Assembly (NCBI GenBank): GCA_002400365.1
Contig: DHFK01000087.1
Location: forward strand, 9,635 to 73,634
DNA: 64,000 nucleotides
Direction of reading: 5' to 3'
Source of the DNA: Anaerolineales bacterium UBA4826
GTDB lineage: Bacteria > Chloroflexota > Anaerolineae > UBA4142
Of this stretch, positions 9,216 through 60,598 are shown in pieces; the stretch's first letter is position 1; the number at the start of each line of letters is the position of its first letter. Made by a program: the position numbers and the translations under genes. A model generated the notes under the pieces. It saw only the letters and a list, made by a program, of their open reading frames with translations, was not told the origin of the DNA and ran no database searches.

Positions 9216-9231
9216 ATCGAACATCGAGAAT

Positions 9232-24585: not shown

Positions 24586-24602
24586 TTTCCTTCTCTTCTT
24601 CT

Positions 24603-26717: not shown

Positions 26718-26800
26718 TCGCGTAGTCGCATGGTCAGATAGTCAAACCGACTACGACTATACGACGACTCGACTATCCGACTAAAGACTATGCGACTATT
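26713..26800. repeat. TAGTCG-unit hairpin spanning the rnc stop and the next gene's start codon
   Basis: Left arm AATAGTCGCGTAGTCGCATGGTCAGATAGTC (26713-26743). Right arm GACTACGACTATACGACGACTCGACTATCCGACTAAAGACTATGCGACTATT (26749-26800). The ATG at 26790 is inside the right arm. Confidence 0.8.
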
Positions 26801-27770: not shown

Positions 27771-30407
27771 ATGCATCTCAAACACCTCGACCTGCACGGC
27801 TTTAAGACATTCGCCAATCGCACCAATTTCGTGTTCGACCTCGGCGTAACCGCGATCGTGGGTCCGAATGGCTCGGGCAAGAGCAACATCGCGGACGCCG
27901 TGCGTTGGGTGATGGGCGAGCAATCCTACAGCGAACTGCGCGTAAAAAAGACCGAAGACCTGATCTTTACCGGCAGCGCGACGCGCCCACGGATGGGCAT
28001 GACCGAAGTTTCGATGATGCTGGAGAATCCGAATCCGTGGACGGAGGCCGCCGCAGACGCGGAGCGCACCGGGGATACAGAGAAAACAAAACTCGACCCC
28101 GTGACCGAGTTGCTTCGCTCGAATCCATCCGAGGTGACGATCGGTCGCCGCGCGTACCGCGACGGCGGCAACGAGTACTTTCTCAACGGCGCGCGCGTGC
28201 GCCTGCGCGACATCTTCGAACTCCTCGCGCGCTGGGGCTTGGCGCGCAACACTTACGCCGTCGTCGGGCAGGGCTTGATTGACCAGGCGCTCTCGCTCCG
28301 TCCCGAAGAACGCCGTGCGCTGTTCGAAGAAGCCGCCGGCATCGGTCTCTATCAATCCAAGCGTCAGAACGCGATGGAGAAACTGGAAGAGACCAAGCAG
28401 AATCTCCTGCGCGTCAACGACATCATCAACGAAATCTCGCCGCGCCTACCCGCGCTGGCGCGCCAAGCCGAACGCGCGCGCAATTACGGCAGCGTCGTCA
28501 ACACGCTCGACGAGAAACTGCGCTTGTGGTACGCGTTTCAGTGGGCGCGCGCCCAGCAAGCCGCGCAAGAGACCGCCGCGCGCGAACACGCCGCGCGCGC
28601 CACATTGAACGCGCGGCGCGCGGGGGTGCAGGACCTCGCCGCCCGGCTCGCGCAGTGGCGGCGGCAGGGCCAGGAACTGCGCCAGCAACTTGCGCAAGCG
28701 CGCCACGCGCGGACGCAACTGGAACAGCAGCACGCGACCCACACGCGCGAACTCGCCGTCCTAGAAGAACGCCTGCGCTTGACGACGCAACAGCGCGATG
28801 AAGCCGCCGCCGAAATCGCGGCGCTCGCAGAATCGCAACGCGCGCAAGAACGACACATTGAGCAAGCGGCGAACCAAAGACAAGGGAAAGAGCAAGAACG
28901 GGACGGCGTGGCAGAGCGTCTGAGCAGGAGCGAAAAGGAACTGCGGGAATTGGAACACCGCGCCGCGCACGCCGAGGCGATGCTGGAGGAGAGCGCGCCA
29001 GAGATCCGCGGACTCGCCAAGCAACTCGCGTCGCTGCGTTCGGAATTCGGCATCTACGAAGAGGGCTTGCGCGCGGCCGCCGCGCTCAGCGTCCAAGCCG
29101 ACGCGCTCACCTCCTTTGAATACAAGCGCGCGCAAGCCGAACGCGCGGTCGAAACCGCGCGCGGTCAACTGACCGAGTTGCGCGCCGCGCTCGCGATCGC
29201 CGAACGCGATGTCGCCGGCGCGCGCGCGGAGGAACAGTCGGCGCGCACCGCGCTTGCCCAGTGGAACGCGCAGGTCGCCGCGCGCGCGCGCCGCGTCGAG
29301 TCGTTCACACGCCAGGTCGAAACCTTGACCGCGCAGCGCGATCAGTTGCGAACGCGCGCGGAGGCATCTGCCCGCGCGCTCGCGGAAAACGATCAGAGCA
29401 TCGCACCTGCCGAGACAAAACTGGCGGACGCGGAAAAAGCGCAGATAGATTTGGAGGAGCAGGAGACCGTAGAGCGCGCGCGGCTGGCGGAATTCGAGGA
29501 CGCGCACAATCGCGCGGTGCTGGACGCGGAACGCAGTCGCGCCGAGATCGCGCGGCTCGAAACCGAAATCGAAGACGACCTCGCCTCAGGTCGGATCGTA
29601 TCCGAAATTGTCGTAGACCCCGCTCGCCGCAGCGGGGACGAAAACGGCAACGGGCGCGAGACGGCGATCGTTCTCAACGCCGACCTGCCTACTCAACTGC
29701 GCTTGCAGTTGGGCGACGAAGTGGTCGCGCTGCCGGTCGTGACCGCCGCGCCCGAAGGACTCGAAAAAGAGATTCGCAAATTACGCAACCAGTTAAAGTA
29801 CATGGGCTCGGTGAATCCGAACGCGCCGCAGGAATTCGATGAGTTGAAAGCGCGCCATCAGTTTCTTACCGAGCAAGCCGCCGACGCGCAGCACGCGATC
29901 GAGAAATTGAACGTGGCGATCGCCGAACTCGACGAGATCATGCGGCGAAAATTCCAAGAGACGTTCAAAGCGATCAACGTCGAATTCACCAAGTTCTTTG
30001 CGATCCTATTCGACGGCGGGACGGCGCGCCTGGAACTGACGAATCCCGAAGACCTCACGCAAACCGGGATTGACGTGATCGCCAAGCCGCCGGGCAAGCG
30101 CGCCGCGCACCTCGCCATGCTTTCCGGCGGCGAGCGCGCGCTCACCGCGACCGCGCTGTTGTTCGCGATCCTCAAGGTCTCGCCGACGCCGTTCTGCGTG
30201 TTGGACGAGGTGGACGCGATGCTCGACGAGGCGAACGTCGGGCGCTTTCGCGACGCGCTCAAGACGCTGACCGCCGGCACGCAGTTCATCGTCATCACGC
30301 ACAATCGCACGACGATGGAAAGCGCGGACGCGGTCTATGGCATCACGATGAACGAGGATGGCGTATCGCAAGCGATTTCGTTGCGGTTGGAGTCAACGAA
30401 TGGGTAA
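27771..30407 (+). CDS. smc: SMC-family chromosome segregation ATPase, short form without a recognisable hinge
   Basis: N-terminal head FKTFANRT...[14 protein letters not shown]-terminal head [17 protein letters not shown]...[16 protein letters not shown]...THNRTTME. The ~490 aa between the heads is uninterrupted Ala/Arg/Glu/Gln-rich coiled-coil-like sequence. Confidence 0.85.
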
Positions 30408-30466
30408 CGAATAGACGAATAGTTCCCGCCCATTCGTTCATTCGTTTATTCGTTGGTGATTCGTTG
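30394..30466. repeat. ACGAATAG-unit hairpin overlapping the smc stop
   Basis: CAACGAATGGGTAACGAATAGACGAATAG (30394-30422) versus CATTCGTTCATTCGTTTATTCGTTGGTGATTCGTTG (30431-30466). Confidence 0.8.
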
Positions 30467-34939: not shown

Positions 34940-34999
34940 GATTTTCGATTTTCGATTGACCCCAACAGGAAATCGAAAATCAGAAATCGAAAACCGAAA
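34940..34999. repeat. TTTCGAT-unit hairpin
   Basis: GATTTTCGATTTTCGATT (34940-34957) versus AATCGAAAATCAGAAATCGAAAACCGAAAA (34971-35000). Same unit family as 9135-9215. Confidence 0.85.
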
Positions 35000-36112
35000 A
35001 TGAGTTTTGACGAACTGCTCTTCCAACTGGATAGCGCCGCATCGCTCAGCGCGAAAAAGCGCATGGTGCGCGAGTTCGCCGCGCGCCAGCCCTCCCCGAT
35101 CGTCGAGGATAACAGCGTCACGTTTTTCTATGTGAGCGAGGACGCCCGCGACGTCGCGTTGGAAGGCGATTGGACCCACTGGCAGCCGACCGCGCCGATG
35201 ACGTATTTGCCGGACACGCCGCTCTGGTATCGCGTCGAGCGATTTCCGCGCGAGGCGCGGCTGGAGTATCGGATCGTCGTCAACGGCACCCGCCGCCTCC
35301 TCGATCCCGGCAACCCGCGCACCGCGCCCAGCGGCTTTGGACTGCACTCTGAACTCGCCATGCCCGATTACCACGCGCCGCGCGAAGTGAGCGACCAGGG
35401 ACGCATCGCGCGCGGCGCGGTCGAGCAGCATTGGATGACCAGCAAGGCGCTGAACGATCGGCGCACGTTCTGGGTCTGGCTGCCGCCGCATTTCAACGCG
35501 CAGAAACCCCACCCGGTCGCGTACTTTAACGACGGCGGCGATTACTTGCGCCTCGCCGATCTGCCGCGCCTCCTGGACTATCTGGTCGAATGGGGTCGCA
35601 TCCCGCCGCTCATCGCCGTGCTCGCGAAACCGAACGATCGGGTCAAGGAGTACGCGCGCAACAACCAGTACGTGCGCTTTCTCGTGGACGAACTCGTGCC
35701 GTGGGTGGATGGCCTGTACCCGACGCGCGATGCGCCGGCGGCGCGCGCCATCATCGGCGCGTCGTACGGCGGATTGTGCGCCGCGCATGTAGCGCGCCGC
35801 CGCCCCAATGTCTTCGGCTTGGTCGGCGGACAATCGGGCTATTACAGTTACCAGAACGATGCGCTGCTGCGCGATTATGCGGCGGCGCAGAACCTCGGCA
35901 TCCGTTTCCACCTGGTCGTCGGCTCATTCGAAACCGATGCGCGCGGCAATGGCAAACCCGAAAGCGACTTGGTAGCGGCGCAGCGTCGCTTTGCGGAACT
36001 GTTACGCGGCAAAGGGTACGACGTGGCGTGCGCCGAGTATCCGGAGGGACATCAATGGGGATTTTGGCGCGCGCACGTCGGCGACGCGCTGAGATTTTTC
36101 TGGGGATGCTGA
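35000..36112 (+). CDS. esterase-D/enterochelin-esterase-like hydrolase with N-terminal Ig/CBM48-like domain
   Basis: GASYGG nucleophile elbow (GxSxG) and an N-terminal VTFFYVSEDARDVALEGDWTHW beta-sandwich-like region. ATG at 35000, with an alternative at 34934. The 34628 start is an artefact running through the dapA-like gene end. Confidence 0.72.
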   Translation: MSFDELLFQLDSAASLSAKKRMVREFAARQPSPIVEDNSVTFFYVSEDARDVALEGDWTHWQPTAPMTYLPDTPLWYRVERFPREARLEYRIVVNGTRRLLDPGNPRTAPSGFGLHSELAMPDYHAPREVSDQGRIARGAVEQHWMTSKALNDRRTFWVWLPPHFNAQKPHPVAYFNDGGDYLRLADLPRLLDYLVEWGRIPPLIAVLAKPNDRVKEYARNNQYVRFLVDELVPWVDGLYPTRDAPAARAIIGASYGGLCAAHVARRRPNVFGLVGGQSGYYSYQNDALLRDYAAAQNLGIRFHLVVGSFETDARGNGKPESDLVAAQRRFAELLRGKGYDVACAEYPEGHQWGFWRAHVGDALRFFWGC

Positions 36113-36182
36113 AGAACAGAGGAGACAGGAAAGATGAAAGATGAAAGATGAAAAACGACCCTCTCCTCTTTCATCTTTCTTC
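36111..36182. repeat. GAAAGAT-unit hairpin between convergent genes
   Basis: GGAAAGATGAAAGATGAAAGATGAAAA (36128-36154) versus CTCTCCTCTTTCATCTTTCTTC (36161-36182). A 13-nt perfect pairing is possible. Confidence 0.8.
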
Positions 36183-40812: not shown

Positions 40813-40841
40813 AGTATACAACAGAACAGATAAAACGTAAA
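40813..40841 (-). promoter_or_regulatory. promoter candidate TTTACG-17-TATACT, 6 nt from the ATG (leaderless)
   Basis: Minus strand: TTTACG (40841-40836), 17-nt spacer, TATACT (40818-40813), CCAGCC, then the ATG at 40806. The -35 hexamer is part of the ACGTAAA repeat. Confidence 0.45.
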
Positions 40842-40906
40842 ACGTAAAGATGCCATTACGTTCTGCGCGTTACGTTTTACGTTTTACGCTTTACGCTTTA
40901 CGTTTT
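40831..40906. repeat. ACGTAAA-unit hairpin in a divergent promoter region
   Basis: TAAAACGTAAAACGTAAAG (40831-40849) versus TTACGTTTTACGTTTTACGCTTTACGCTTTACGTTTT (40870-40906). Confidence 0.9.
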
Positions 40907-40925
40907 GCGCCCCGCGTGCTACAAT
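40897..40925 (+). promoter_or_regulatory. promoter candidate TTTACG-17-TACAAT, 6 nt from the folK ATG (leaderless)
   Basis: TTTACG 40897-40902, 17-nt spacer, TACAAT 40920-40925, GTCCCC, then the ATG at 40932. Confidence 0.45.
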
Positions 40926-43260: not shown

Positions 43261-43326
43261 CTTTACGTTTTACGTTTTAGACGAGGTAAAGCGTAAATCG
43301 TAAAACGTAAATCGCAAAACGTAAAA
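43261..43326. repeat. ACGTAAA-unit hairpin within the btu-like operon
   Basis: CTTTACGTTTTACGTTTTA (43261-43279) versus TAAAGCGTAAATCGTAAAACGTAAATCGCAAAACGTAAAA (43287-43326). Confidence 0.85.
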
Positions 43327-44467: not shown

Positions 44468-45529
44468 CTACTTGAACAACTCTGGGTGAATGATCTTCGC
44501 CGCGGCTTCCAAGCCATCGGCGATGCGCGGGCCAGGCCGGCTGACCAGGTTATCGTCAATCGGAAAGATTCGGTTGTTCTTGACGGCGTTGATCGCCGAC
44601 CAACCGCCGCGCGCCTTGACTGATTCGGGCGTCGTGCCGTACGCGGCATCGCTCAGGATGATGAGATCAGGATTCGCGGCGATGATCGCTTCCGCGTTCA
44701 CTTGGGCGTACGGCGTTTTGGCATTGGCGGTTGCGTTGACGCCTCCCGCGAGCGTGATGATGTCGTTGATGAACGAGCCGGGACCTGGCGCGTACGGCTT
44801 GGCGGGATCGGTCGCGTCGAGTTCCCAGTAGACCCGCGGCTTGGCCTGCGCGTTCGCCACCTTCGCTTTGACCGCGTCCACTTTTTGCTTCATCGCGTCG
44901 GCGATCGTTTTCGCTTTCGCATCCGTCCCGGTTGCCTTGCCAACCAGCGCGATGTCCGCGGTCACGCTATCGAACGTCGTGTTCATCGAGCCGACGACGA
45001 GCACGGTTAGTTTGAGATCGGCAAGTTTCTTGATGTCGTCAGGACTCTGGATGCCCGCCGCGAGAACCAGATCGGGCTTGAGCGCGACGATTTGCTCAAG
45101 GTTCAGCGGATACGTTTTGATCTTGGGCAAATCCTTCGTCTCGGCGGGATAATCGGAAAACGAATCCACGGCGACGACGCGGCGGCCCAGTCCGAGCGCG
45201 AACGCGATTTCGGTTGTGCTCGGCGCGAGCGAGATGATGCGTTGCGGTAGCGCAGAGATCGTCACGCTTCGATTCGCGCCGTCGGTGACGGTGATCGGCG
45301 CGGGTGTGGCTGTCGCAGGCACCGGCGTCGGCGCGACCGTTGGCGGGATTTTAGTCGGCGCAGCAGTTGGCGGGACGGGCGTCGCGGTTGGCGCGAGCGT
45401 CGCCGGAATTCGAGTCGGCGCAGCGGTGGGAGGAACGGGCGTCGCGGTTGGCGCGGGCGCGCATGCAACAACCGCGACCAGCATTATCGTCAGGGCAATC
45501 AGCCCGGCGGAAAGTTTTCGAGCGTTCAT
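44468..45529 (-). CDS. btuF: periplasmic-binding-protein (BtuF/TroA-like) lipoprotein of the ABC importer
   Basis: Lipobox VVAC, a P/T/A-rich repeated linker, then a class III PBP domain (RIISLAPSTTEI..). AGGAGA sits 6 nt upstream of the ATG at 45529. Confidence 0.82.
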   Translation of the reverse strand: MNARKLSAGLIALTIMLVAVVACAPAPTATPVPPTAAPTRIPATLAPTATPVPPTAAPTKIPPTVAPTPVPATATPAPITVTDGANRSVTISALPQRIISLAPSTTEIAFALGLGRRVVAVDSFSDYPAETKDLPKIKTYPLNLEQIVALKPDLVLAAGIQSPDDIKKLADLKLTVLVVGSMNTTFDSVTADIALVGKATGTDAKAKTIADAMKQKVDAVKAKVANAQAKPRVYWELDATDPAKPYAPGPGSFINDIITLAGGVNATANAKTPYAQVNAEAIIAANPDLIILSDAAYGTTPESVKARGGWSAINAVKNNRIFPIDDNLVSRPGPRIADGLEAAAKIIHPELFK

Positions 45530-45561
45530 TGGATTCTCCTGTTGTGAATTTAATGCACGAT

Positions 45562-45600
45562 GGAAAAACAAAAATCCCCTTGCCTTTTCGACAAGGGGAT
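45562..45600 (-). terminator. riboswitch expression-platform terminator
   Basis: Minus strand: ATCCCCTTG-TCGAAAAGG-CAAGGGGAT followed by TTTTGTTTTT. It ends 33 nt before the ATG. Confidence 0.85.
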
Positions 45601-45682
45601 CAAGTCGCGTGAGTCATCATCATCCTGCCCCCTTTCTCGCGAAGGTTGCGTCGGGTAAGCGCGATCAGATTGCATCGCGCTC

Positions 45683-45865
45683 TGACAGAGACAGGTTTTC
45701 TGGCTTGCTAGCAGATAACGTATGGCAGATGGCAGATGGCTATTGAGGTTTTTGCCATAAGCCATTTGCTCTTTGCTATCTGCTAGTCCACAGTTGCGGG
45801 ACAGCGTCGGCTTGACCGAACTTGCCCTGTTTGGCTCTCCCTTTCGGAAAGAGTCACCTCTGTCA
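45683..45865 (-). promoter_or_regulatory. cobalamin riboswitch aptamer
   Basis: The minus strand contains GGTGAC..TTCCGAAAGGGAG..AACAGGGCAAG..GGTCAAGCC..GCTGTCCCGCAACTGTGG, then the B12 box AAGCCAGAAAACCTGTC. P1 pairs TGACAGAG (45865-45858) with CTCTGTCA (45690-45683). It is upstream of btuFCD-like genes. Confidence 0.85.
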
Positions 45866-45946
45866 ATTCCTATTGCGTTGAAAATGTACGGATCGCTCAA
45901 CCATCCTCGCAAAGGCCCCAAACCTTCGCAAGGTTCTGGTTCGTGA

Positions 45947-49066: not shown

Positions 49067-51791
49067 GGTGGATTCTGTTTCCGTGTCGAAGATAGAAAAT
49101 CACAATGCCGGTCACAATCAAAAGACTTGCGCTGACTGCCGCGCCGAGCATAAACGACATCGGGCGATAATCGAAAACAAGCGTATGCGTCCCCGGTTCG
49201 ATCCGCACCGCGCGGAACAAAACATCCGCGCGATAGAGCGGCGCCGGCTGACCATCCACGAACGCGTTCCAACCCGGATACCATGAATCGGTCAGCACCA
49301 CATAGCCCGGCTGAGCCGTCGTCGCCGCCATTTCGACGCGCTCGGGTTGGTAACGCGTGATGGCGATGGTGTCGGGCGACTCTGGTTGCGGCAACGCCTG
49401 CGCCAAGTCTGCCTCCGCAGACTCTTCACCGAGCAACACCACCTGGTCGGCGCGAAAATTCCTTTCGCTCAAGCGCGCGAGCGCCGCGTCGTCGTTCATC
49501 ACTTTTGCCGCGTGTACGACGAACGCGCGCGGCAGCAGGTCGAGATTCTCCCACGCCGCGACCGTATCGCTCAGATACGCCAGCCGGAACGCGTTCTTGC
49601 CGGTCAGATGCGCGAGCGAAATAGACGCGCCGTTCGCCGCGTTGAACCAGATACTTTCGATCAGCAGGCGCGCGGTCGGCTGCAGTACGCGGACGCCTAC
49701 GCCGACGATCTTGCGCGCCGCCAAGTCGTACCGCGCGAGGTACGTGTGTCCCTCGAACGCGCGACCGAACGCGCGCCAGTACGCTGAGAAAGAGTGTGCG
49801 ATCCGCGCGCGCTGATGCTTGATTTGGTGCGCGGCTTGCTTGCGGTCGTAATCCCAGTCCGCCGTTTCGACGCCGACGCGCAAGGACAAGGTCTTGGTCG
49901 TATCGTCGTCAAAGCGTAAAGTGATTTCAGCCACCGGCGTGCCGTCCGCAAGGTTCGCGGCTTGCTCGGTTGCGGACGCAATGTACATCACAGCCGCCGG
50001 CGTCGGCGCAATGCTAACTTCGTTGTCCAAAATATCCAGCGCGACGGAATCGGCGGGCGTCGCCATCTTCGTCTGCGGTCGTGGCTCGAGGGGGACCATC
50101 CAATAGCGCACGTTCAGCAGGCTCAGCATCGCCGGCGCAAGGTTGTAAAAGTACGCCTGGTGCCTGGCATATTCGAGCGACGTGTACGCCTGCGCGCTCT
50201 CTCGCCCAAAGGTCAGTCCGCTCGACGGAAAGAAACTGCCGCGCAGCGCCGGGAGAGACGGAAAGACCGACAAATCGGTGAACACGCGCTCGGGTTTTTG
50301 CGGCGCGCCCAGCGCAGTCGCCGATCGCGGTACCGTCTCAACGTACGCCGCCGGCGTTAGCGCGTCTATCGTCGCCAAGAACGGCGGGAAGAAACTTGCC
50401 AGGTCAAGCACGGTCAGCCCGACGATCGCGCTCGCCAAGACCGCGCCGTCGAGCCGACGCATCTTGCTCAGTCCAATCAGCGCCACCGAAACGAGCCCGA
50501 GCGGTAACGGGAGGATCTGCCACACCGTGAGCCAAAAGTCGAGGGGTTGCGCGTACGCCAATGCGATGACGCCCAGCGCGAACCCGGTCGCGAGAGTGAT
50601 CGTTCGTTTGCCTAATTCTCGGGTTTGCGCCAATGCGTCTAGCGCGCTCGCGCCCAAAAGCGCTGCCGCAAAAACAAAGATAAAGAGATAGCGCGCCGGC
50701 ACGCGGAACAAGCCAAAGATCGGCAGGCGATAGAGCCAGGCGTACAGCGGATTCTGTCCGCCCAACGCCAGCGCCAACGCGACCAACGCCAAGCACAGCA
50801 GGAAAATCGTCTGACGATTCCGGCGCAGCAACGGCGCAAGCAGCGCGAGCAGCAGCGGCGCGATGCCAAAGTAGAACCAGTACTCGCCGCTCGCTTCCGA
50901 CGGCTCGCCGCGAGCAAAAGGCAAAAGCGCCTGAGAAAGCGCTTCGACCGGCAGCGAATAACTGGCGAAAAACTCTTGGCTCGCTGCGCGGCGAACCGAA
51001 TAGCCGGTCAATTCGCTCGTCGGCAGCAGTTGCGCCGCGGCGATACCACCCCCCAGTATGCCGGGCAGCACCGTAGAGAAAACGACCGCCGCTAGCGCGG
51101 CGCGCCCGTGCGCGCGCCGATGCCACAGCCATCCGCCGGCAATGCCGAACGCGCCGAACGTGAGCGCGTTCAGGAACGCCAACTGCGCCGAGCCGCAGAG
51201 AAACTGGACGCCGAACGCCAGCGTGGTAAGCGCGAACCACACCGCGCGGCGATCGGTCATTGCGCGGAGCGATTTTTGCAGCCGGTCTTGAAAGAAAATC
51301 AACCACGGCAGCCACGCCATCGTCGCGATGACGGAGGGATGCGAGAGATGTCCAAAGATCACGCCGTTGAACGAAAAGACGAATCCCGCCAGGCACGCGC
51401 CCGGCGCGCGCACCCCCAGCGACCGCGCGCAAGCGTACATGCCGACGCCCGCCCACGCCAGGTGGAGCAAAATTCCGTACGACAGCGCGAAATGCGCCGG
51501 CAATAGTTTGTAAAGGAGCCAATTGATCGGATACAGCGCGCCCACCTGCCCTTCCGCCAGTAGCGGAAAACCGGCGAGCAAGCCCGGCGTCCAGAGCGGC
51601 AGCCGCCCCTCGTTCAGCGCGCGCGCCAGTTCAACGCCAAAGGGATGGAACAAGCGCACGACATCCGTCGTGAACCAGACATTCTGCCCGAGCGTCACCT
51701 GCCAGAAATACACCGGCGACCACGCGGCGAGCAACGCAATCGCCCCCACGTCTCCGCTACGGAAGAATCTGAGTTCACGGAAAGCGGACAT
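49059..51791 (-). CDS. YfhO-family polytopic membrane protein (glycosyl-transfer associated)
   Basis: 910 aa. N-terminal LPLWTPGLLAGFPLLAEGQVGALYPINWL is typical of YfhO. It has more than 12 TM segments and one C-terminal TM. Confidence 0.75.
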   Translation of the reverse strand: MSAFRELRFFRSGDVGAIALLAAWSPVYFWQVTLGQNVWFTTDVVRLFHPFGVELARALNEGRLPLWTPGLLAGFPLLAEGQVGALYPINWLLYKLLPAHFALSYGILLHLAWAGVGMYACARSLGVRAPGACLAGFVFSFNGVIFGHLSHPSVIATMAWLPWLIFFQDRLQKSLRAMTDRRAVWFALTTLAFGVQFLCGSAQLAFLNALTFGAFGIAGGWLWHRRAHGRAALAAVVFSTVLPGILGGGIAAAQLLPTSELTGYSVRRAASQEFFASYSLPVEALSQALLPFARGEPSEASGEYWFYFGIAPLLLALLAPLLRRNRQTIFLLCLALVALALALGGQNPLYAWLYRLPIFGLFRVPARYLFIFVFAAALLGASALDALAQTRELGKRTITLATGFALGVIALAYAQPLDFWLTVWQILPLPLGLVSVALIGLSKMRRLDGAVLASAIVGLTVLDLASFFPPFLATIDALTPAAYVETVPRSATALGAPQKPERVFTDLSVFPSLPALRGSFFPSSGLTFGRESAQAYTSLEYARHQAYFYNLAPAMLSLLNVRYWMVPLEPRPQTKMATPADSVALDILDNEVSIAPTPAAVMYIASATEQAANLADGTPVAEITLRFDDDTTKTLSLRVGVETADWDYDRKQAAHQIKHQRARIAHSFSAYWRAFGRAFEGHTYLARYDLAARKIVGVGVRVLQPTARLLIESIWFNAANGASISLAHLTGKNAFRLAYLSDTVAAWENLDLLPRAFVVHAAKVMNDDAALARLSERNFRADQVVLLGEESAEADLAQALPQPESPDTIAITRYQPERVEMAATTAQPGYVVLTDSWYPGWNAFVDGQPAPLYRADVLFRAVRIEPGTHTLVFDYRPMSFMLGAAVSASLLIVTGIVIFYLRHGNRIHHD

Positions 51792-53145
51792 TCCACTTGA
51801 AACCGAAAAATGGAAAACGATTCACGTCGCGCGTCATTTGCAACGGCGGCAGCCAATCCTGCCACGGCGCTTGCGCGCCTTGCAGCGACGAGTACGCCGA
51901 AAGCGCAAGCAGCGGCGCGAACAAGATCCAGCCGACATGCTTCCAGGTGCTTGCGTTCAGCGGCGGCGCATCAAAGATGAACGCGCACAAGGTGGGAATT
52001 GCCGGGATGAACCAACGCTCGCCATAGCCCGTGCCGCCATAGTTGCCTGTTTGCGTCGCCAGGTAGACACTCAACACGATAAAGCCCAACGCCGTAGAAA
52101 TTCCTTCGATCCAAAGTGGGTGTTTGCGCTTCAATCCTACTCCGATCGCGCCGACCAGCGCGAACAACAACAGCGGATTGTAGGCGAACAGCCCTTTGCC
52201 GCCGAGGAACATGCGGAACGCGTACGCCGCGTAATCGTCCGGCGTACCGTTTCCGCCGAACGTCGCGGGAAACGCCGAGCCGGGATAATTATAGCCGTTC
52301 GTAAGCATGTACGGCGGCAGGATCGTCTGCGCGATTTGATAATCGAGCAGCGCGGTCACGAGCATTGGAATCGCCGCGCCGATCAAAAAGAATCCCCAGC
52401 GCCAGCGCTGCCGCGCCAGCGCAATCCCGGCGATACTCGCGGCGACAATACCCGCCAGCACATCGAACGAAACCGCCAGGGCGGCTAGGAATCCTGCGGC
52501 AACGAGGAGTCCGTCGGAGAAACCCGTTTTCTGCGCTTTTTCGATGCATGTCCCGCCTGATGAGGAAGAAAACGGGTTTCTGAAACTGTGCACACTCGCG
52601 TCGCGCGTCGTCAATATATAGAAACTCGCAAAGAGACTTGCCGCCGCCGGAACATGATGGTTGAAAACAAGCGCGAACGGAAACAGCAGCGTGCCCAGCC
52701 CCAACGCCAGTATCCCGATCGCCGCAATCCACACCGGCACCGCGCGGCGCAGCGCGTGATCGAAAAAGAGCCAGAGCATCAGCGCAGCGGGAACGGCAAC
52801 CAGAATCAAAGTGAGCCAGGGGTACGCGCACCTCTGGCAATCAGGCGCGAGCGACGCGCCGAAGCCAAAACGCAAAATCGCGTACACCCCCGCGCCGATC
52901 AGGGTCAGCGCCGGCATTTTGTCGGAATAGAACTTGCCGCCGATCAGGACCTTGTCCTTGGTCGCGTCCACCCAGAGCGAATGGTCAATGGACCACGTCC
53001 CACGTTCCGCCAACGATTCGATCGCGGCGACGCGCGCGATGTCGTTCCACGACTCTGGCTTGCTCTTGATCAGCGTGAGCGCCCCGCCGAGAAACAAAAG
53101 CGCGATTCCCGCGCCGATTACCCTTCGCCATTTGCGATTCGCCAT
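51775..53145 (-). CDS. GT-C-like polytopic membrane protein (putative glycosyltransferase) with palindromic-element insert
   Basis: 456 aa. The DKVLIGGKFYSDKMPALTLIG loop resembles the first periplasmic loop of ArnT/PMT-like enzymes. The start at 53145 lies inside a heptamer array and overlaps polA by 28 nt, so it is uncertain. Confidence 0.5.
   Translation of the reverse strand: MANRKWRRVIGAGIALLFLGGALTLIKSKPESWNDIARVAAIESLAERGTWSIDHSLWVDATKDKVLIGGKFYSDKMPALTLIGAGVYAILRFGFGASLAPDCQRCAYPWLTLILVAVPAALMLWLFFDHALRRAVPVWIAAIGILALGLGTLLFPFALVFNHHVPAAASLFASFYILTTRDASVHSFRNPFSSSSGGTCIEKAQKTGFSDGLLVAAGFLAALAVSFDVLAGIVAASIAGIALARQRWRWGFFLIGAAIPMLVTALLDYQIAQTILPPYMLTNGYNYPGSAFPATFGGNGTPDDYAAYAFRMFLGGKGLFAYNPLLLFALVGAIGVGLKRKHPLWIEGISTALGFIVLSVYLATQTGNYGGTGYGERWFIPAIPTLCAFIFDAPPLNASTWKHVGWILFAPLLALSAYSSLQGAQAPWQDWLPPLQMTRDVNRFPFFGFKWNVRFP
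52518..52581. repeat. GAAACCCGTTTTC palindromic element, copy C (inside a CDS, reading frame maintained)
   Basis: AGAAACCCGTTTTC (52518-52531) and GAAAACGGGTTTCT (52568-52581). On the minus strand it reads FRNPFSSSSGGTCIEKAQKTGFS. Confidence 0.9.
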
Positions 53146-55940
53146 TCGCTATTCGCCATCGCGTCCCAATTCTGCCCGACCGCGACATCCACCTTCAACT
53201 TTGATTCCAGCGCGTACGCGTTCTCCATGATCTCGCGCACGAGCGGCGCAACAACGCGTACCTCGTCGTCGGGACATTCGAGCACGAGTTCGTCATGCAC
53301 CTGGAGCGTCATCCGACTTTTCAAATTGCGCGCGTGCAGTTCGCGCTGCAACCGAATCATCGCCAGTTTAATAATGTCCGCCGCGCTGCCCTGAATCGGA
53401 TGGTTGATCGCTTCGCGCTCCGCCGCGTTCTTCAGCGCGGGGTTGACGCTGCCCTTGCCGCGCAGTTCGGGAAAATAACGCCGCCGCCCCAGGAGCGTCT
53501 GCACGTAGCCATGCTCGCGCGCCTCGCGCTTGGTGCTTTCGATGTACGCCTTGACCCGCGCGAACTGGGTAAAGTAATTGTCAATCAGTTGCCGCGCCTC
53601 GGCTTGCGACAACTCGGTGCGCGCGGCGACACCGTAATCGGTGATGCCGTAGGCGATGCCAAAGTTGATCGTCTTGCCCAACTGCCGCATGGACGCCGTG
53701 ACCTGCTCACGCGGGACGTTGAACAAGCGCGCGGCGGTCGCCGCGTGAATGTCCTCCCCGCGCGCGAACGCGTCGAGCAAACCCGGGTCGTGCGTGATGT
53801 GCGCGAGGATGCGCAGTTCGACCTGGGAATAATCCGCGCTGATGAGTTTGCTGCCGCGCGGCGCGATGAACGCGCGGCGCACCTGCCGCCCCAGGTCGGT
53901 GCGGATCGGAATGTTCTGCAAATTGGGGTTCGACGATGAGACGCGTCCTGTGATCGCGCCGGTCTGGTTGTAATCGGTGTGCACCCGCCCGGTGCGCGGC
54001 AACACCAGCGCGGGCAGCGCGTCCACATACGTCCCTTTGAGTTTCGACAACTCGCGGTGCTCGAGAATCAACGGGATGATCGGATGCGCGGCGCGCAGTG
54101 ACTCCAACACCTCGGCGGCGGTCGAAATCTGACCGGTTTTCGTCTTGGGTAACCCAGTCGTCGGCAGTTTCAGCCGCTTGTACAGCGCATCGCCCAATTG
54201 CTGCGGCGACGCGATGTTGATCGGCATTCCAACGTGCGTGGTGATTTGCTTTTCCAACTCTTGCAGCCGCGCGGCAAGTTCGTCCGACATCCGCGCCAAA
54301 AAGTCGAGATCGAGCAACACGCCGGCGCGTTCCATCTCCAGCAGCACCGGCACGAGCGGCATCTCGACCTCGTTGAACAATTTGTCGAGTCCGTGTTCCG
54401 CCAGTTGCGGCTGGTAGAGTTCGACGAGGCGATAAGTGTAATCGGCGTCCGCGCACGCGTAACGCGACACTTTTGCAGGATCCACCTCCGCCATCGAAAT
54501 CTGGTTCTTGCCCTTGCCGATCAGCGCCTCGATCTCCGTCATCTCGACGCCGAACTTTTGAAAGACCAAACTCTTCAAGCCGATGGATTGTCTCCCCGGC
54601 TCGATCAAATGCGCGGCGATCATCGAGTCGAACGCAAGTCCGCGCAGTTCGACGCCGGCTTCGGCAAGCACCGTCGCGTCATATTTCGCGTTGTGCGCGT
54701 ACTTGATAATGCGCGCATCTTCGAAGATCGGTTTCAGTTTGGCGAGAACGTGATCGCGCTTAAAAGATGAAGGGTGAAAGATGAAAGATGAAGGTACTGT
54801 ATCAAAGGCAAGTTGCCCTTGTTTCCCAACTTCATCTTTCAACTTTCTGCTTTCATCCTTCACGGGAACATAATACGCCTCGCCATTCCCCACGCCGATC
54901 GCCAACCCCACCAACTCCGCGCGCATCGCGTCGGTGTCGGTGGTCTCGACGTCAACGACAAACGCCTTTGCCGATTGCAGACGCGCGACCAATTGGTCGA
55001 GCGCGGCTTCCGTATCAACCGTGTGATAATTCTCGGCGATGGCTTGCGGCTTGGCGGCAACCGAGTCCGGCGGCGCCGGCTTGACGCCGGGCAGTCGTTC
55101 GATCAAACTGCGAAAGCCGAGTTCACGAAAGAGCGCGACGACGCGTTCGCGGTCGTACTCTTCGACGCGGCACGCGGCGAGATCGAGTTTCACCGGCGCG
55201 TCGGTCACGATCGTGACGAGTTGCTTGCCTTGCTCTGCCTGCGCTTGTCCCGCGCGCAATTTTTCTTGCCAGCGTTTTTCGATTTCCTCGAGGTGCGCGT
55301 AGATGTCTTCGACGCTGCCGTACGTCTGCACGAGTTTCGTCGCGGTCTTTTCGCCGATACCGGGGACGCCGGGGATGTTGTCGGACACATCGCCTTTGAG
55401 CGCCTTGAAATCAATCAGTTGGCGCGGCTCGAGTTGGTAGCGCTGCTTGACCGCCGCTTCGTCGTACACAACGAATCCGCCCCCCGACTGCGGCGAGAAC
55501 ATCAGCACGCGCACGTGCGGCCCGATCAGTTGCAGCGTGTCAGTGTCGCCGGTGACGATGAGCGTTTCGATGCCGCGTTCGCTTGCCTGCCGCGCGAGCG
55601 TGCCGAGCAGATCGTCCGCTTCGTACCCTTCCAGCCCGAACGCCGGAATGCCCAACGTCTCCACGACCTGGCGCGAGCGCTGCAACTGCGTCAACAAATC
55701 ATCGCCGAGTTCAGGGCGCGTGGCTTTGTATTCCGCGTACAGCGCGTCGCGAAAACTCTTGCCCACGTCGAACGCGGCGGCGATGTACTCGGGCTTTTCG
55801 TCGCTCAGGACTTTGAGAACCGTCGAGGTAAAGCCGTACGTCGCGTTGGTCGGTTCGCCGCTCGGGCTGGTGAGGTTGGTTTGGATCGCGTGGTACGCGC
55901 GGTGGATCAGTGCGTGCGAATCAAGGAGAACAAGTTTCAT
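53118..55940 (-). CDS. polA: DNA polymerase I
   Basis: 940 aa. 5-prime nuclease domain, 3-prime-5-prime exo-like domain (DVETT, KYAHNAKYD) and polymerase motifs A (DYSQVELR), B (RRAAKTINFGIAYG-like QLGKTINFGIAYG) and C (QVHDEL). Confidence 0.97.
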   Translation of the reverse strand: MKLVLLDSHALIHRAYHAIQTNLTSPSGEPTNATYGFTSTVLKVLSDEKPEYIAAAFDVGKSFRDALYAEYKATRPELGDDLLTQLQRSRQVVETLGIPAFGLEGYEADDLLGTLARQASERGIETLIVTGDTDTLQLIGPHVRVLMFSPQSGGGFVVYDEAAVKQRYQLEPRQLIDFKALKGDVSDNIPGVPGIGEKTATKLVQTYGSVEDIYAHLEEIEKRWQEKLRAGQAQAEQGKQLVTIVTDAPVKLDLAACRVEEYDRERVVALFRELGFRSLIERLPGVKPAPPDSVAAKPQAIAENYHTVDTEAALDQLVARLQSAKAFVVDVETTDTDAMRAELVGLAIGVGNGEAYYVPVKDESRKLKDEVGKQGQLAFDTVPSSFIFHPSSFKRDHVLAKLKPIFEDARIIKYAHNAKYDATVLAEAGVELRGLAFDSMIAAHLIEPGRQSIGLKSLVFQKFGVEMTEIEALIGKGKNQISMAEVDPAKVSRYACADADYTYRLVELYQPQLAEHGLDKLFNEVEMPLVPVLLEMERAGVLLDLDFLARMSDELAARLQELEKQITTHVGMPINIASPQQLGDALYKRLKLPTTGLPKTKTGQISTAAEVLESLRAAHPIIPLILEHRELSKLKGTYVDALPALVLPRTGRVHTDYNQTGAITGRVSSSNPNLQNIPIRTDLGRQVRRAFIAPRGSKLISADYSQVELRILAHITHDPGLLDAFARGEDIHAATAARLFNVPREQVTASMRQLGKTINFGIAYGITDYGVAARTELSQAEARQLIDNYFTQFARVKAYIESTKREAREHGYVQTLLGRRRYFPELRGKGSVNPALKNAAEREAINHPIQGSAADIIKLAMIRLQRELHARNLKSRMTLQVHDELVLECPDDEVRVVAPLVREIMENAYALESKLKVDVAVGQNWDAMANSEWRIANGEG
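53124..53158. repeat. five tandem TTCGCCA-type heptamers at the polA end and the next gene's start
   Basis: TTCGCCA TTTGCGA TTCGCCA TTCGCTA TTCGCCA. On the minus strand it encodes the polA tail MANSEWRIANGEG and contains the ATG at 53145. Confidence 0.85.
54762..54863. repeat. GAAAGAT-unit hairpin inserted in frame in polA
   Basis: AAAAGATGAAGGGTGAAAGATGAAAGATGAAGG (54762-54794) versus CCAACTTCATCTTTCAACTTTCTGCTTTCATCCTTCAC (54826-54863). 17 of 18 bases pair in the core. On the minus strand it reads VKDESRKLKDEVGKQGQLAFDTVPSSFIFHPSSFK. Confidence 0.88.
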
Positions 55941-55949
55941 AAGTCACTG

Positions 55950-56012
55950 CGCCAATCGCCCAATGAACCAATGAGCCAAACGAGCCATTCGTCAAATTGC
56001 TTTGGCTCATTG
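55950..56012. repeat. CCAATGAG-unit repeat/hairpin upstream of polA
   Basis: CCAATCG CCCAATGAA CCAATGAG CCAAACGAG units. CAATGAGCCAAA (55969-55980) is the perfect complement of TTTGGCTCATTG (56001-56012). Confidence 0.85.
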
Positions 56013-56017
56013 CGCAT

Positions 56018-56404
56018 TTATTTATCCAGTCGTTCGAGGTTGCTGACGCCGCTGGTCTGCAATTCCTGATAGCGCGCGTCGGCGTTCCTGGCGCGCCACT
56101 CGACGACGACACGCCCGTCGCCGTTCTTGTACGCGGCGAGCGCCTTGTGCCTCAAGACGCGCTCAAACGCGTTCAGCAGTTCTTGGCTCGGCGCTTGCAT
56201 TTTGAGACGCAAATAATCCTTCGGCTCCCATTCCATCGTAAAAGCGACGTCGCCCCATTCGCCCCGACATTCAAACGGCGCGGTCTCTTTGACGCAACTG
56301 AACCACATGCGGGTCAAGCCCGCTTTCCAAAATGTCAGCCGCAGAGCGTTCTCAATGGCAGAGCGCGAGGGAGGAAAATCGGCGAAAAACCATTGGGCAC
56401 TCAT
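56018..56404 (-). CDS. hypothetical protein
   Basis: 128-aa ORF with no recognisable motif and plausible codon usage. Confidence 0.45.
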   Translation of the reverse strand: MSAQWFFADFPPSRSAIENALRLTFWKAGLTRMWFSCVKETAPFECRGEWGDVAFTMEWEPKDYLRLKMQAPSQELLNAFERVLRHKALAAYKNGDGRVVVEWRARNADARYQELQTSGVSNLERLDK

Positions 56405-57330: not shown

Positions 57331-57781
57331 AGCATTTCTCGAAACGAAATCCTCCGATCGCGCCACGCGACCTGCAGATTCAGGCTTGCTCACAGATTGG
57401 CGCAAACCGAACCAGCCATCGAGTTCCCAGACGGCTTTGATTTCGTCAAGCGAAAACAGGGTAAGATCGGGATGACCTGGGACGTGCCGCGCGCTTTGAC
57501 CAAGCCAGCCGCATTGGCAGACAAGCGCATGGCTCGCCGCCACCGCGCGTTTGTCTGCCGCCGAGTCGGAGGGTCTGGTGGAGAAAGATGTTCTGCCCCT
57601 TTTCCTACGCGGCAAGGGGAGGGGTGCGCCCCTTCCCTGGGAGGGAAGGGGGTGGGGGTTAGGTCGGACTGCCAGTCAACTGACTCAAGCCCTCGGTGGA
57701 ATGTCAAGAGCCGCGAGGCAGGGGGCAAGAACAAATAAACCTAACCTGCGCCGAGCAGCAGATAGCACTTGGCCTGCTTGC

Positions 57782-60598
57782 TCATTCGATTTTGTACGCG
57801 CTCGGATCCGGCTTGACCGCGCGCGGCATCCACAGGGGTCGGCGCAGATTGGCCGGACCGGGTGCAGGGCGCGTCAGCGCGAGCCATTCCTTGTAGATTT
57901 CGTGGGCGCGGTTCGTGTCCACAAACACATCCCCATAGCGGTCGCCGGACTGCGCTTTGTCGACGCGCACCTTTTGATGCCAGCAGTGCATTCCGCTGAT
58001 CGGGTCGGGATGGACGGGCATAGTCAGATTTTGATGCACGCCGACCTCGTTCCACCACACGCGCAGAGAATCGGGGTCGTTGCTCGCAAAGGGTTTTGCG
58101 CCTTCGAGTTGCTTCATCGTCCATTTGCCGCCGGCGTGTTCCAGTTTCACCGTCGAAGCAAGCCAGCCCGAACCGCTCTGCTTGTCCAACCTCCAGCGTC
58201 CCATGTGATGCGAACACGCAACCACACGCGGATGAATGCTTTCCGTCACCCACACCTTGTCCACGAAATACCCGATGTCGGTCGTCACGCGCACCAGGTC
58301 GCCGGTCTTGACGCCGAGTTGGCGCGCGTCATCGGTGTGTATCCACACGGGGTTCTTGTGCGAAATCTCTGCCAGCCATTTCGAGTTCGCGCTGCGTGTG
58401 TGAATCTGGGTCGGCAGGCGAAAAGTCGAAAGCAAGACGAATTCATTCTTTGCCCGATCCACATTGTCGCGCCGCACGTGACTGGGAATGTATGCCGGCA
58501 AAGCGTACTCCCCCCATTTCCAATCCTGCATCGTACGCGAATAGATTTCAAGTTTGCGCGAGGGCGTCGGAAAGCCGACGTACTTTTCGCCATCAATTTC
58601 GACGCCGATTGCCGCGCCGCCTTTTTTCACCGCATGGGTCGTCGCATCTACGCTCGTTCCTTCAAGTTCCCTCTCCGTTAGTTTCTTCTCGTGGGTCTGG
58701 TAGACCAGGTCTTTGACGGTGAACGCGCCGTACTTGCGCATGAACTCGAGTGGGGTCAGGTTTTCTTGCTGCGCCGCTTCGGGTAAGCCGGGGACACTGT
58801 TCTCAAAAATCCAGCGATAGTAATCCGTGACCGTCATCTTTTCGCCGGGGCGAAAAGGCGATTCAAAATACTTGCGGATGCCCAGCGACCCATCGGGATC
58901 GATGCGCCACGACAACTCGATCCAGAACTCGTCTTCTTCCCAGACCTGACCTGGGTTGGCTTCGTACGTGTACTTGACCGGCTTGCCGATTTTCTCCAGC
59001 GCCACGCGGCGCACCGGTTGCCGGAACGCGATCCATTGCGCGGCGTGCGTTTCATAACTCACCAGGTCGTGCCGCTCCGGTCCCAGTCCCATCGGCAAGA
59101 CGTAGTCGGCGAACCACGCCGTCTCATTCCACGTGGGCGTGAGCGCGGCGTGCAAGCCGACCAGGTTTTCATCGGACAGCACTTCCATCCATGTCGCACC
59201 ATCGGGATTCGTCCACACCGGATTATAGACCCGCGTGAAATAGACGGCGAGTTTGCCGCGTCCCTCCTTCAAGAAATGCGGCAGGAGAAAACTCATTTCA
59301 AAGTACGCCAGCGGATACTCTTTCGGCATCAAGAGTTCGTTCCACACTTTTTGCGGCGGCGGCTTGAGCGGCGGCGTGGGCACGAATTTGTTGAACCCGT
59401 TGGGCGACGTGCCACCGGGCGTTCCCACCGCGCCGACGAGCACGCTCAAAAATTCCAGGCACCGCGCCACCTGCCAGCCGCCGAGATTCGCGGTCGCGGC
59501 GCTGCGCCACACGTGCGTCGCAAACGCCGACCCGGCGCGTCCGATCTCGCGCGCGATTTCGACAATCGTCTGCGCCGGAATTCCCGATTCCTTCTCCGCA
59601 AATTCCGGCGTGAACGAAGCGTAATTCTTTTTGAGACGCTCGATAAAGTCGTCGAAGGAGTAGTTAGCAATTGGAGATTGGAGATTTGGCTCATTGGGCA
59701 ATTGGCTCATTGGCTCATTGATCATGAACTCTTCCCAATTCGTCCAGCGGCGCACGAAATCGCGATTGAACAAATTCTCGTTCAAGATCACGCGCGCCAT
59801 GGCGAGCAGAACCGCGGCTTCCGAACCGGGCCACGTCGGCAGCCAATAGTCTGCCAGCGAAGCCGTGTTTGACAAGCGCGTGTCCAGCACCGCGATTTTC
59901 GCGCCGCGCATTTTCGCTTCGATAATGCGTTGCGCGTGCGGATTGAAATAGTGCCCCGTTTCGAGGTGCGACGAGATGAGCAGAATAAAGCGCGCGTTCG
60001 CATGATCGGGCGAGGGGCGATCAAAGCCATGCCACAAGGAATAGCCGAGGCGCGCCGCGGAGGAGCAAACGTTCGTGTGCGAATTGTGTCCGTCAATTCC
60101 CCACGCTTGCAAAACGCGATCCATGTAACCATCGTGCCCGGGACGACCGACGTGATACATGATTTCGTTGCGCCGTCCTTCCGTCAGCGCTTTGCGAATC
60201 CGTCCGCCAATATCGTCGAGCACTTGGGCCCAGGTCACACGTTCCCATTTGCCTTCGCCGCGTTTTCCGGCGCGTTTAAGCGGAAACAAAATCCGTTCGG
60301 GATCAGTCACCTGGCTGTACGTCGCCGGACCTTTCGCGCAGTTGCGTCCGCGCGAGCCGGGATGTTCGGGGTTGCCTTCGAACTTGCGCACCTGGAGCGT
60401 CTTTTTGTCAATGTACGCAAGCAAGCCACAACCGGCTTCGCAGTTAAAGCAGACGGTCGGCACGAGCATGTAATGCTTCTCGACGCGGCGGGGCCAAGCG
60501 GTGGGCTCGTACTCCATCCAATCGTCCCACTGCTCAACCGGCGGATACGCGGCGAGTTCTGGTTTCGTCGTCACAAAATCAAGCGCAACACGCGTCAT
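57782..60598 (-). CDS. molybdopterin (bis-MGD) oxidoreductase catalytic subunit, no Tat signal
   Basis: 938 aa. N-terminal 4Fe-4S motif CFNCEAGCG...C(AKG). Candidate Mo-ligand Cys in HTNVCSSAARLG. Typical MopB domain order. No RR-x-F-L-K motif in the first 40 aa. Confidence 0.9.
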   Translation of the reverse strand: MTRVALDFVTTKPELAAYPPVEQWDDWMEYEPTAWPRRVEKHYMLVPTVCFNCEAGCGLLAYIDKKTLQVRKFEGNPEHPGSRGRNCAKGPATYSQVTDPERILFPLKRAGKRGEGKWERVTWAQVLDDIGGRIRKALTEGRRNEIMYHVGRPGHDGYMDRVLQAWGIDGHNSHTNVCSSAARLGYSLWHGFDRPSPDHANARFILLISSHLETGHYFNPHAQRIIEAKMRGAKIAVLDTRLSNTASLADYWLPTWPGSEAAVLLAMARVILNENLFNRDFVRRWTNWEEFMINEPMSQLPNEPNLQSPIANYSFDDFIERLKKNYASFTPEFAEKESGIPAQTIVEIAREIGRAGSAFATHVWRSAATANLGGWQVARCLEFLSVLVGAVGTPGGTSPNGFNKFVPTPPLKPPPQKVWNELLMPKEYPLAYFEMSFLLPHFLKEGRGKLAVYFTRVYNPVWTNPDGATWMEVLSDENLVGLHAALTPTWNETAWFADYVLPMGLGPERHDLVSYETHAAQWIAFRQPVRRVALEKIGKPVKYTYEANPGQVWEEDEFWIELSWRIDPDGSLGIRKYFESPFRPGEKMTVTDYYRWIFENSVPGLPEAAQQENLTPLEFMRKYGAFTVKDLVYQTHEKKLTERELEGTSVDATTHAVKKGGAAIGVEIDGEKYVGFPTPSRKLEIYSRTMQDWKWGEYALPAYIPSHVRRDNVDRAKNEFVLLSTFRLPTQIHTRSANSKWLAEISHKNPVWIHTDDARQLGVKTGDLVRVTTDIGYFVDKVWVTESIHPRVVACSHHMGRWRLDKQSGSGWLASTVKLEHAGGKWTMKQLEGAKPFASNDPDSLRVWWNEVGVHQNLTMPVHPDPISGMHCWHQKVRVDKAQSGDRYGDVFVDTNRAHEIYKEWLALTRPAPGPANLRRPLWMPRAVKPDPSAYKIE
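59669..59720. repeat. ATTGGAG / ATTGGCTC simple-repeat patch inside the Mo-enzyme CDS
   Basis: AATTGGAGATTGGAGATTTGGCTCATTGGGCAATTGGCTCATTGGCTCATTG. It combines units found at 2439-2494 and 55950-56012. On the minus strand it reads INEPMSQLPNEPNLQSPIAN. Confidence 0.8.

Follow-up and report, generated by a model that had tools for sequence, protein, structure and literature searches.

Inverted heptanucleotide repeats encode both flanks of a predicted disordered loop in the DNA polymerase I of an uncultured Chloroflexota lineage

Simple repeats whose unit is not a multiple of three nucleotides (nt) are normally taken, where they occur within open reading frames (ORFs), to be phase-variation switches or errors. 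Contingency loci are phase-variable genes that carry such non-triplet repeats in their ORFs, and they are typically surface or restriction genes; PMC12721329 provides an example of their context. The Rickettsia palindromic elements of Ogata et al. 2000 reportedly lie in frame within ORFs, in copies that align over their whole length and that are present or absent between orthologues. The repeat units found in the ORFs of Borgs are said to be multiples of 3 nt. Here we describe a locus that bears comparison with each of these: inverted tandem arrays of a 7-nt unit within polA, the gene for DNA polymerase I (Pol I), of Anaerolineales bacterium UBA4826. The stretch analysed, called the window throughout, comprises 64,000 nt (assembly GCA_002400365.1, contig DHFK01000087.1, positions 9,635 to 73,634), and coordinates are counted from its first nucleotide. 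The two arrays encode both flanks of a lineage-specific loop of approximately 34 residues in the 3'-5' exonuclease domain. We consider, with a probability of roughly 60%, that the spacer arms of an ancient disordered Pol I loop, being unconstrained, were taken over by a heptanucleotide simple-repeat process, and that the loop probably presents a short linear motif, possibly one that binds the sliding clamp.

Long simple sequence repeats (SSRs) with heptanucleotide units are over-represented in many prokaryotes (Mrazek et al. 2007, as summarised in PMC4679880 and PMC4692102), and the examples given in these summaries include cyanobacterial STRR heptamers and Xanthomonas GGGAATC arrays, some of them arranged as inverted repeats. 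So far as the summaries describe them, such SSRs resemble the arrays of the window in the over-representation of the 7-nt period, in a mainly intergenic distribution with some inverted pairs, and in keeping their position while length and sequence vary between close relatives. Unlike the SSRs summarised there, the arrays of the window are mostly inverted pairs with their own unit at nearly every locus; they are also found in frame within conserved proteins, including an essential-type polymerase, and their host is an uncultured Chloroflexota lineage. Judged by its sequence, the polA feature is itself a heptanucleotide simple repeat, both arms having at least three tandem copies of the 7-nt unit, the number by which long SSRs are defined. 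A literature search with incomplete coverage returned no description of heptamer hairpins in Chloroflexota or Anaerolineae, and the phenomenon, as seen across the genome, is possibly new. Borg tandem repeats create intrinsically disordered protein regions, and the likeness lies in rapidly evolving tandem repeats that generate or remodel disordered protein segments (PMC9879509). In contrast to those repeats, the polA unit is 7 nt long and is read in all three frames to give a period of seven amino acids, and a change of one unit is lethal to the frame. Like a Rickettsia palindromic element, the polA feature is a palindromic repeat of around 100 nt that is read in frame and gives a housekeeping protein a surface peptide; unlike one, it has the unit alone in common with other loci, the loop is present in every orthologue, and its centre is a conserved protein motif. 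With contingency loci it shares a non-triplet repeat inside a coding sequence, but the repeat is degenerate, the data examined contain no on/off length variants, and the gene encodes a core replication and repair enzyme.

The polA product contains 5'-nuclease, 3'-5' exonuclease (PF01612, residues 305-508) and family-A polymerase Pfam domains. D330, E332, N417, D421, Y494 and D498, which are the catalytic residues of ExoI, ExoII and ExoIII, are invariant in an alignment of 95 orthologues. An AlphaFold2 model with a mean predicted local distance difference test (pLDDT) score of 86.8 matches the Klenow and Bst large-fragment structures with target-normalised template-modelling scores of 0.90-0.93, those for Klenow being 0.91-0.93. 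On these comparisons the protein is an ordinary Pol I, and none of its six proofreading catalytic residues has been lost. The repeat-encoded segment, VKDESRKLKDEVGKQGQLAFDTVPSSFIFHPSSFK, corresponds to residues 360-394 and lies between the ExoI and ExoII blocks, exactly as translated and placed by a first-pass annotation made from the DNA sequence alone. That annotation had also put the corresponding segment of Klenow at about 19 residues and the one here at about 41, and a HMMER alignment with the E. coli Klenow fragment indeed opens a gap of 22 residues precisely at the loop. The pLDDT drops below 50 at residues 370-389 and averages 35-40 over residues 371-390; the segment, in frame and free of stop codons, is predicted to be a disordered surface loop.

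Comparison of 121 polA orthologues from Chloroflexota metagenome-assembled genomes, with 57-100% identity, indicates that this loop is older than the repeats. The distance between the flanking anchors AYYxP and HNxKYD is 45-113 residues in all 121, every one of them in frame, as against 24-32 residues in 71 of 77 distant Pol I sequences. Within the close clade, column conservation falls from 0.86 upstream of the loop to 0.27 in the left arm, rises to 0.70 at the centre (QLAFDT), drops again to 0.39 in the right arm and recovers to 0.74 downstream. The codons of the centre differ synonymously among genomes (CAA/CAG, CTT/CTC/TTG, GCC/GCG/TCG, TTT/TTC and GAT/GAC), and selection therefore acts on the peptide. 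In three deeper orthologues (L165-L167; 57-63% identity) the loop is equally long or longer and has QPSLFD, QATLFD or EQLAFDT at its centre, and the DNA that encodes it has no 7-nt periodicity (period-7 self-match 0.26-0.33), with none or one array in its flanks. In six others (L009-L011, L015, L022 and L083) the loop and its central motif persist without any periodic arm. These alignments establish, as far as sequence goes, that the loop, its site and its Q-L-A-F-D-T centre predate the repeats and are maintained by selection at the protein level, and that both flanks are nearly free in amino-acid sequence. The polA feature is not, on the same evidence, a recent mobile-element insertion. The first-pass annotation had taken it for an inserted, merely tolerated element of the Rickettsia type, and had itself named repeat-free orthologues with an equally long loop as the observation that would overturn this; these orthologues, and a comparable or longer loop throughout the set, do so. 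Its notion of a repeat-derived peptide survives for the two arm peptides, which are repeat-encoded, and fails for the centre, a conserved motif under protein-level selection.

The inverted repeat spans 54763-54862 and is built of units that read GATGAAA and TTTCATC on the coding strand. Its arms (54763-54793 and 54830-54860) are each 31 nt long, 84% complementary and separated by 36 nt; in Tandem Repeats Finder they appear as arrays of period 7, at 54763-54792 and 54831-54862, of 4.3 and 4.6 copies respectively. Folded in the sense of the mRNA the segment reaches -46.3 kcal/mol, compared with -24.4 +/- 3.4 in dinucleotide shuffles (z -6.4), none of 200 shuffles being as good, and folded as DNA it has a z of -5.4. 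The two-armed, in-frame heptamer hairpin of around 100 nt that had been read from the bare sequence is thereby upheld. GC content at third codon positions (GC3) is 0.43-0.53 in the arms and 0.74 in the remainder of polA. A perfect run of (GAAAGAT)n or (GAAGGAT)n contains TGA in the polA frame; variant units in the purine-rich arm (GAAAGCA and GAAAGTT in the window, GAAGGCG and GAAGGCA in relatives) sidestep this stop codon and so account for the internal loops and mismatches of the stem, and units that are stop-free in any frame, such as GACGAAA and GACCGCC, form more regular arrays. Because 7 is not a multiple of 3, the encoded peptide has a period of seven residues, as in DEGRRAN DEGRRTN of one relative (L090). 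Simulated gain or loss of a single unit brings translation to a stop at residue 371-399 and truncates PolA, the frameshift that had been foreseen.

Four further near-identical assemblies (99.8% identity) have the same loop, unchanged but for one synonymous TTG>CTG at 54842, a mismatched stem position, and the polA arrays do not vary in unit number across the five. Since these five independent assemblies agree, an assembly artefact is ruled out. An exact-sequence look-up returned no record for the protein variant of the window (P0121) and four strains for a near-identical variant (P0001). Rfam, at its gathering threshold, has no match at the hairpin, and a promoter and terminator scan of 53000-56200 showed no enrichment and left it unflagged. 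An intrinsic terminator was rejected on that scan and on the absence of a U tract, the AT-rich stem and the 36-nt loop. Removal of the segment by splicing or editing is likewise ruled out, given that it is in frame and stop-free and has a conserved centre, without intron-like features or an Rfam match.

The arms themselves turn over. Among 35 distinct orthologous loop DNAs recovered for their analysis, the left arm is 7-periodic in 21, the right arm in 24 and both arms in 19. There are at least seven families of left-arm unit (GATGAAG, GACGAAG, GACGGAG, GACCGCC, GRACAGT, TCAGTAG and the 8-mer GCAGGGG) and at least six of right-arm unit (CTTCATC, CTTCGTC, CTCCGTC, CGCCACT, ACGCAAT and GCATCAC), and the combinations of left and right unit are patchily distributed on a neighbour-joining tree of polA. 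Concerted evolution within arms is evident from these sequences, in that periodicity is retained while units change. The GAAGGAT/ATCCTTC hairpin is kept in the window and in L094, L168-L171 and L086, at z values of -1.9 to -6.8, in polA genes 70-82% identical to that of the window, and the close clade probably inherited it from its ancestor. In L094 the 5' end of the contig (positions 1-80) is a low-complexity poly-C/G run directly before the polA loop and is probably assembly junk.

The units of the two arms have also changed together. A compensatory series runs through GATGAAG/CTTCATC (the window, L094, L168-L171 and L086), GACGAAG/CTTCGTC (L014) and GACGGAG/CTCCGTC (L001); L093, which is one-sided, combines GACGAAG on the left with CTCCGTC on the right, the form expected of a step between the L014 and L001 states. 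Units are complementary to within two of seven positions in 12 of the 19 two-armed loops and have 4-5 mismatches in six. Arms of the same genome pair better than arms drawn from different genomes (permutation of duplex energies, p = 0.0017), and in L002, L004, L007 and L089, even so, pairing is poorer than in almost any combination across genomes. Coupling between the arms is, to judge from these comparisons, real and not universal, and could reflect copying from arm to arm or weak selection for pairing. RNAalifold, applied to eight hairpin-bearing orthologues, gives a weak consensus of -4.5 kcal/mol with a positive covariation term because register within the periodic arms is ambiguous, and the duplex-energy permutation and the comparison of units were used in its place. 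In the GAAGGAT subset, the proportion of identical codons given an identical residue is 0.78 in the right arm and 0.67 in the left, and 0.59 in the remaining gene.

A motif of the form Q-phi-x-[FL]-acid or Q-x-x-[LM]-F-acid occupies the loop centre in 110 of the 121 orthologues, the first and shorter form in 80, the window among them, and the second in 30, which belong to the deeper clade. Interest in a lineage-specific Pol I loop with a clamp-like centre is heightened by a very recent report of such a motif in mycobacterial Pol I: the M. tuberculosis enzyme has the lineage-specific clamp-binding motif QLSLLDD, and the low-complexity flanks of this motif are thought to maintain its accessibility (bioRxiv 10.64898/2026.09.19.751633). 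The clamp-binding consensus given in the same source is Q-phi-x-[LM]-[FL] or Q-phi-x-[LM]-x-[FL], and the Q-x-[SA]-L-F-[DE] of the deeper clade fits it. The window and the Mycobacteriales have in common a Q-hydrophobic-x-hydrophobic-acidic pattern in the Pol I of one lineage, set in a disordered segment with low-complexity flanks. Their locations differ, the motif of the window lying within the exonuclease domain, between ExoI and ExoII, and that of the Mycobacteriales between the exonuclease and polymerase domains. The centre is most probably a short linear motif held out on a flexible tether. Two Ignavibacteria polA sequences (L067 and L070) have independently lengthened loops of 44-47 residues at the same site, containing NSLFS or DSLFD, which resemble the C-terminal half of a clamp-binding motif.

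Across the window there are 20 near-perfect arrays of period 7 or 8, compared with 0.3 in shuffled sequence. In a count by period, arrays of period 7 number 17 in the window, as against 0-3 for each of the periods 5, 6 and 8-11. The density of period-7 arrays per 100 kb is 26.6 in the window, 15.9 in close relatives (309 kb) and 2.1 in distant ones (1.3 Mb), the window having some 13 times the distant density. Most are inverted pairs in short spacers, often starting at a stop codon, with a unit specific to each locus, and the units are AT-rich (39% GC in a window of 61% GC). Outside the spacers, arrays of period 7 or 8 are found at protein termini and linkers, namely the C-terminal extension of polA, the N-terminal linker of a GH39 protein and a TMEM260-like protein; arrays in different genomes hold their positions as their units drift, and one example is the 3' end of polA, where relatives have AATGGCG, AATGACG and AAATGAC. 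Some units recur at unlinked loci of the window: ACGTAAA at three, CGAAAAT at two and TTGGAGA-like units at four. Pairs of identical class at unlinked loci number six where 0.26 are expected, and when one mismatch is allowed within a pair the composition-matched P is 0.0035. With up to two mismatches allowed, the sequence GAAAGATGAAAGAT is found 13 times where 0.25 occurrences would be expected, the sites falling at four loci (10992, 24548-24635, 36129-36179 and 54769-54847). The GAARGAT hairpins at 10992, 24548, 36129 and 54763 have only the repeated unit in common, their loops and flanks being unrelated. The kinship with intergenic arrays that had been proposed for the polA hairpin accordingly extends to the unit class, found in three intergenic hairpins, and to no sequence beyond the unit.

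Under the interpretation that we prefer, the flanks of the ancient loop would need only to be in-frame, stop-free and flexible spacers, and for this reason they could have been colonised by the heptanucleotide repeat process of the lineage. Each arm would then evolve in concert, through slippage or conversion among its units, and the tracking of one arm by the other in many lineages would arise from copying between arms (by fold-back or template switching) or from selection for pairing, giving rise to unit turnover with compensatory changes. The reading frame would act as a filter, in that only in-frame lengths would survive and units that make stop codons (GATGA in GAAAGAT or GAAGGAT runs) would stay degenerate. 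Several points weigh against this interpretation. Copying between the polA arms is conjectural. Local slippage explains neither the recurrence of identical units at unlinked loci nor the conservation of the arms at the nucleotide level with AT-rich, non-preferred codons; constraint at the DNA or RNA level may be at work here, or else copying from locus to locus. The order of events could also have been the reverse, the whole loop starting out as an old repeat insertion and then decaying in the deeper clade. As for the motif, the QLAFD of the window is one residue shorter than the pentapeptide clamp-binding consensus, and the hexapeptide reading, QGQLAF, places Gly at the aliphatic position and begins with a Gln that is not conserved. 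The conserved centre is for these reasons a putative beta-clamp-binding motif by analogy, a tentative conjecture against which the odds lean.

A bolder proposal, which we regard as distinctly unlikely, is that inverted heptamer arrays at fixed positions are actively written and rewritten in this lineage by a process specific to sequence families, and that in polA this process has repeatedly reshaped the two flanks of a conserved motif of clamp-binding type and has always kept the frame. It is suggested by the units themselves, since these are common to unlinked loci, are AT-rich in a genome of 61% GC and change in both arms together; if true, repeats of a class not described before, structured and evolving in concert, would be building disordered tethers in core proteins. 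Something does act at the nucleotide level in the arms, and we therefore retain, as unlikely yet deserving of attention, the view that the hairpin itself is selected as an mRNA stem-loop or a DNA cruciform, with a role in mRNA stability, in translational pausing between subdomains or in attenuation, and with the peptide as a by-product. The strong fold (z -6.4), the preservation of the GAAGGAT/ATCCTTC hairpin in seven lineages, the compensatory changes of whole units, the superior pairing of own-genome arms and the synonymous-site conservation of AT-rich, non-preferred codons would all follow from such selection. It is difficult to reconcile, however, with the six of 19 two-armed genomes that have 4-5 mismatches per 7-nt unit, among which L002, L004 and L007 pair worse than random cross pairs, or with the persistence of loop and centre in at least 11 orthologues without a periodic arm; nor do the weak RNAalifold consensus with its positive covariation term, the absence of an Rfam match and the lack of a terminator-like U tract favour it.

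That a mobile palindromic element of the GAAAGAT family arrived in polA and persists there, like the Rickettsia elements, as a neutral peptide that the enzyme tolerates in frame, appears improbable to us. A long loop is present in 121 of 121 orthologues, some of them without repeat DNA, and the hairpin loop is a conserved, protein-selected motif, so that the two arms cannot have arrived as one element. The unit class is indeed common to three intergenic hairpins of the same genome, but these copies have only the unit in common, with unrelated loops and flanks, and no terminal repeats or target duplications were seen. That the polA feature is in frame on a disordered surface loop, and that repeats do make new in-frame insertions in this lineage (the molybdopterin oxidoreductase described below), speaks in favour of an insertion. 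Least credible of all is a phase-variable switch, by which non-triplet slippage would toggle between full-length Pol I and a truncated protein with the 5'-nuclease domain only. A 7-nt array within an ORF, with the early stop codon reached after a change of one unit, is what such a switch would look like, and an intergenic array (45722-45740) does differ by one unit between strains. No length variant of polA exists in the five near-identical assemblies, however, all 121 orthologues are in frame, and the arrays, being degenerate with at most about 2.6 perfect units, disfavour slippage; on the evidence available the polA repeat is not a phase-variation locus.

Taken over by repeats or not, the locus documents a 7-nt repeat hairpin that has stayed in frame within a core enzyme of replication and repair, in lineages whose proteins are only 70-82% identical. 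The polA arms offer a natural experiment on the filtering of repeat dynamics by the reading frame, on the formation of disordered tethers from repeat DNA and on the co-evolution of arms. For annotation, periodic gene segments of low GC3 in this lineage should not be mistaken for recent insertions, frameshifts or misassemblies. The coordinates of the features are collected in Table 1.

Table 1. Features of polA and heptamer or octamer arrays in the window.
Feature	Position	Strand	Basis or remark
polA, DNA polymerase I, full-length, 940 amino acids	53118-55940	minus	ORF and Pfam domains
Coding segment for V360-K394, lineage-specific loop, predicted disordered	54759-54863	minus	ORF translation, Klenow gap, pLDDT
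5' arm (coding sense), purine-rich, GAAGGAT GAAAGCA GAAAGTT GAAAGAT GAAG, encodes K361-V371	54830-54860	minus	
Loop centre Q376-L-A-F-D-T381, inside hairpin loop	54798-54815	minus	Column conservation, synonymous codons
3' arm (coding sense), pyrimidine-rich, CTTCATC TTTCATC TTTCACC CTTCATC TTT, encodes P383-F393	54763-54793	minus	
(TGGCGAA)n array, second in polA, encodes C-terminal extension NSEWRIANGEG, the final 10 or so residues	53124-53163	minus	Overlaps start of next gene (51775-53145)
Octamer array just upstream of polA start	55960-55979		Octamer arrays at same place in relatives
Intergenic hairpin, GAAGGAT / TTCATCC, polA-arm unit class, directly after tRNA-Leu	10992-11067		
Intergenic hairpin, GAAAGAC / TCTCTCA, unit class related to polA arms	24548-24635		
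Intergenic hairpin, unit GAAAGAT identical to that of polA arm, between convergent genes	36129-36180		
Spacer hairpin pairs, part 1	2438-2535, 9172-9231, 10992-11067, 12565-12644, 24548-24635, 26748-26799		
Spacer hairpin pairs, part 2	30407-30454, 34940-35001, 36129-36180, 40831-40910, 43262-43326		

Elsewhere in the window, nearly every short intergenic spacer contains an inverted pair of 7- or 8-nt arrays that folds as a long hairpin, with an AT-rich unit specific to the locus and often with its first nucleotides at the stop codon of the gene upstream. Within coding sequence, arrays at 18691-18804 encode FTFYVSRF...LANYPTNQLAN in the TMEM260-like ORF, of 945 residues, and another at 6633-6662 lies in the N-terminal linker of the GH39 glycosidase, after a lipoprotein-like signal (SPTSNFQPPTS). 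An in-frame heptamer-plus-octamer array at 59670-59720, in the molybdopterin oxidoreductase ORF (57782-60598, minus strand), encodes NEPMSQLPNEPNLQSPIANYS in a loop of the protein. A tblastn search with this oxidoreductase against the recovered loci matched loci of the same species only, and homologues were taken instead from a protein search; the peptide is missing from homologues at 77-80% identity, and the closest relatives have differing repeat peptides of 0 to about 30 residues in its place. By this comparison it is a genuine insertion made by the repeat. In the same gene, 16 substitutions separate the window from strain L161 within 68 nt (59032-59099), the strains being otherwise 99.8% identical, and there is a smaller cluster at 57603-57710; both may be recombination patches.

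A cobalamin riboswitch (Rfam RF00174, 38.5 bits) at 45673-45876 on the minus strand contains the ATGGCAG heptamer array at 45722-45740. Strain L161 has lost exactly one 7-nt unit of this array (at 45740), one of the few indels between the near-identical strains, and in strain L163 only 12 nt stand in place of the 83 nt at 45734-45816, which makes the segment shorter by about 71 nt. Close by, the ORF at 44468-45571 (minus strand) contains a tandem repeat of period 60 at 45330-45459, with 2.2 copies and a Tandem Repeats Finder score of 183.

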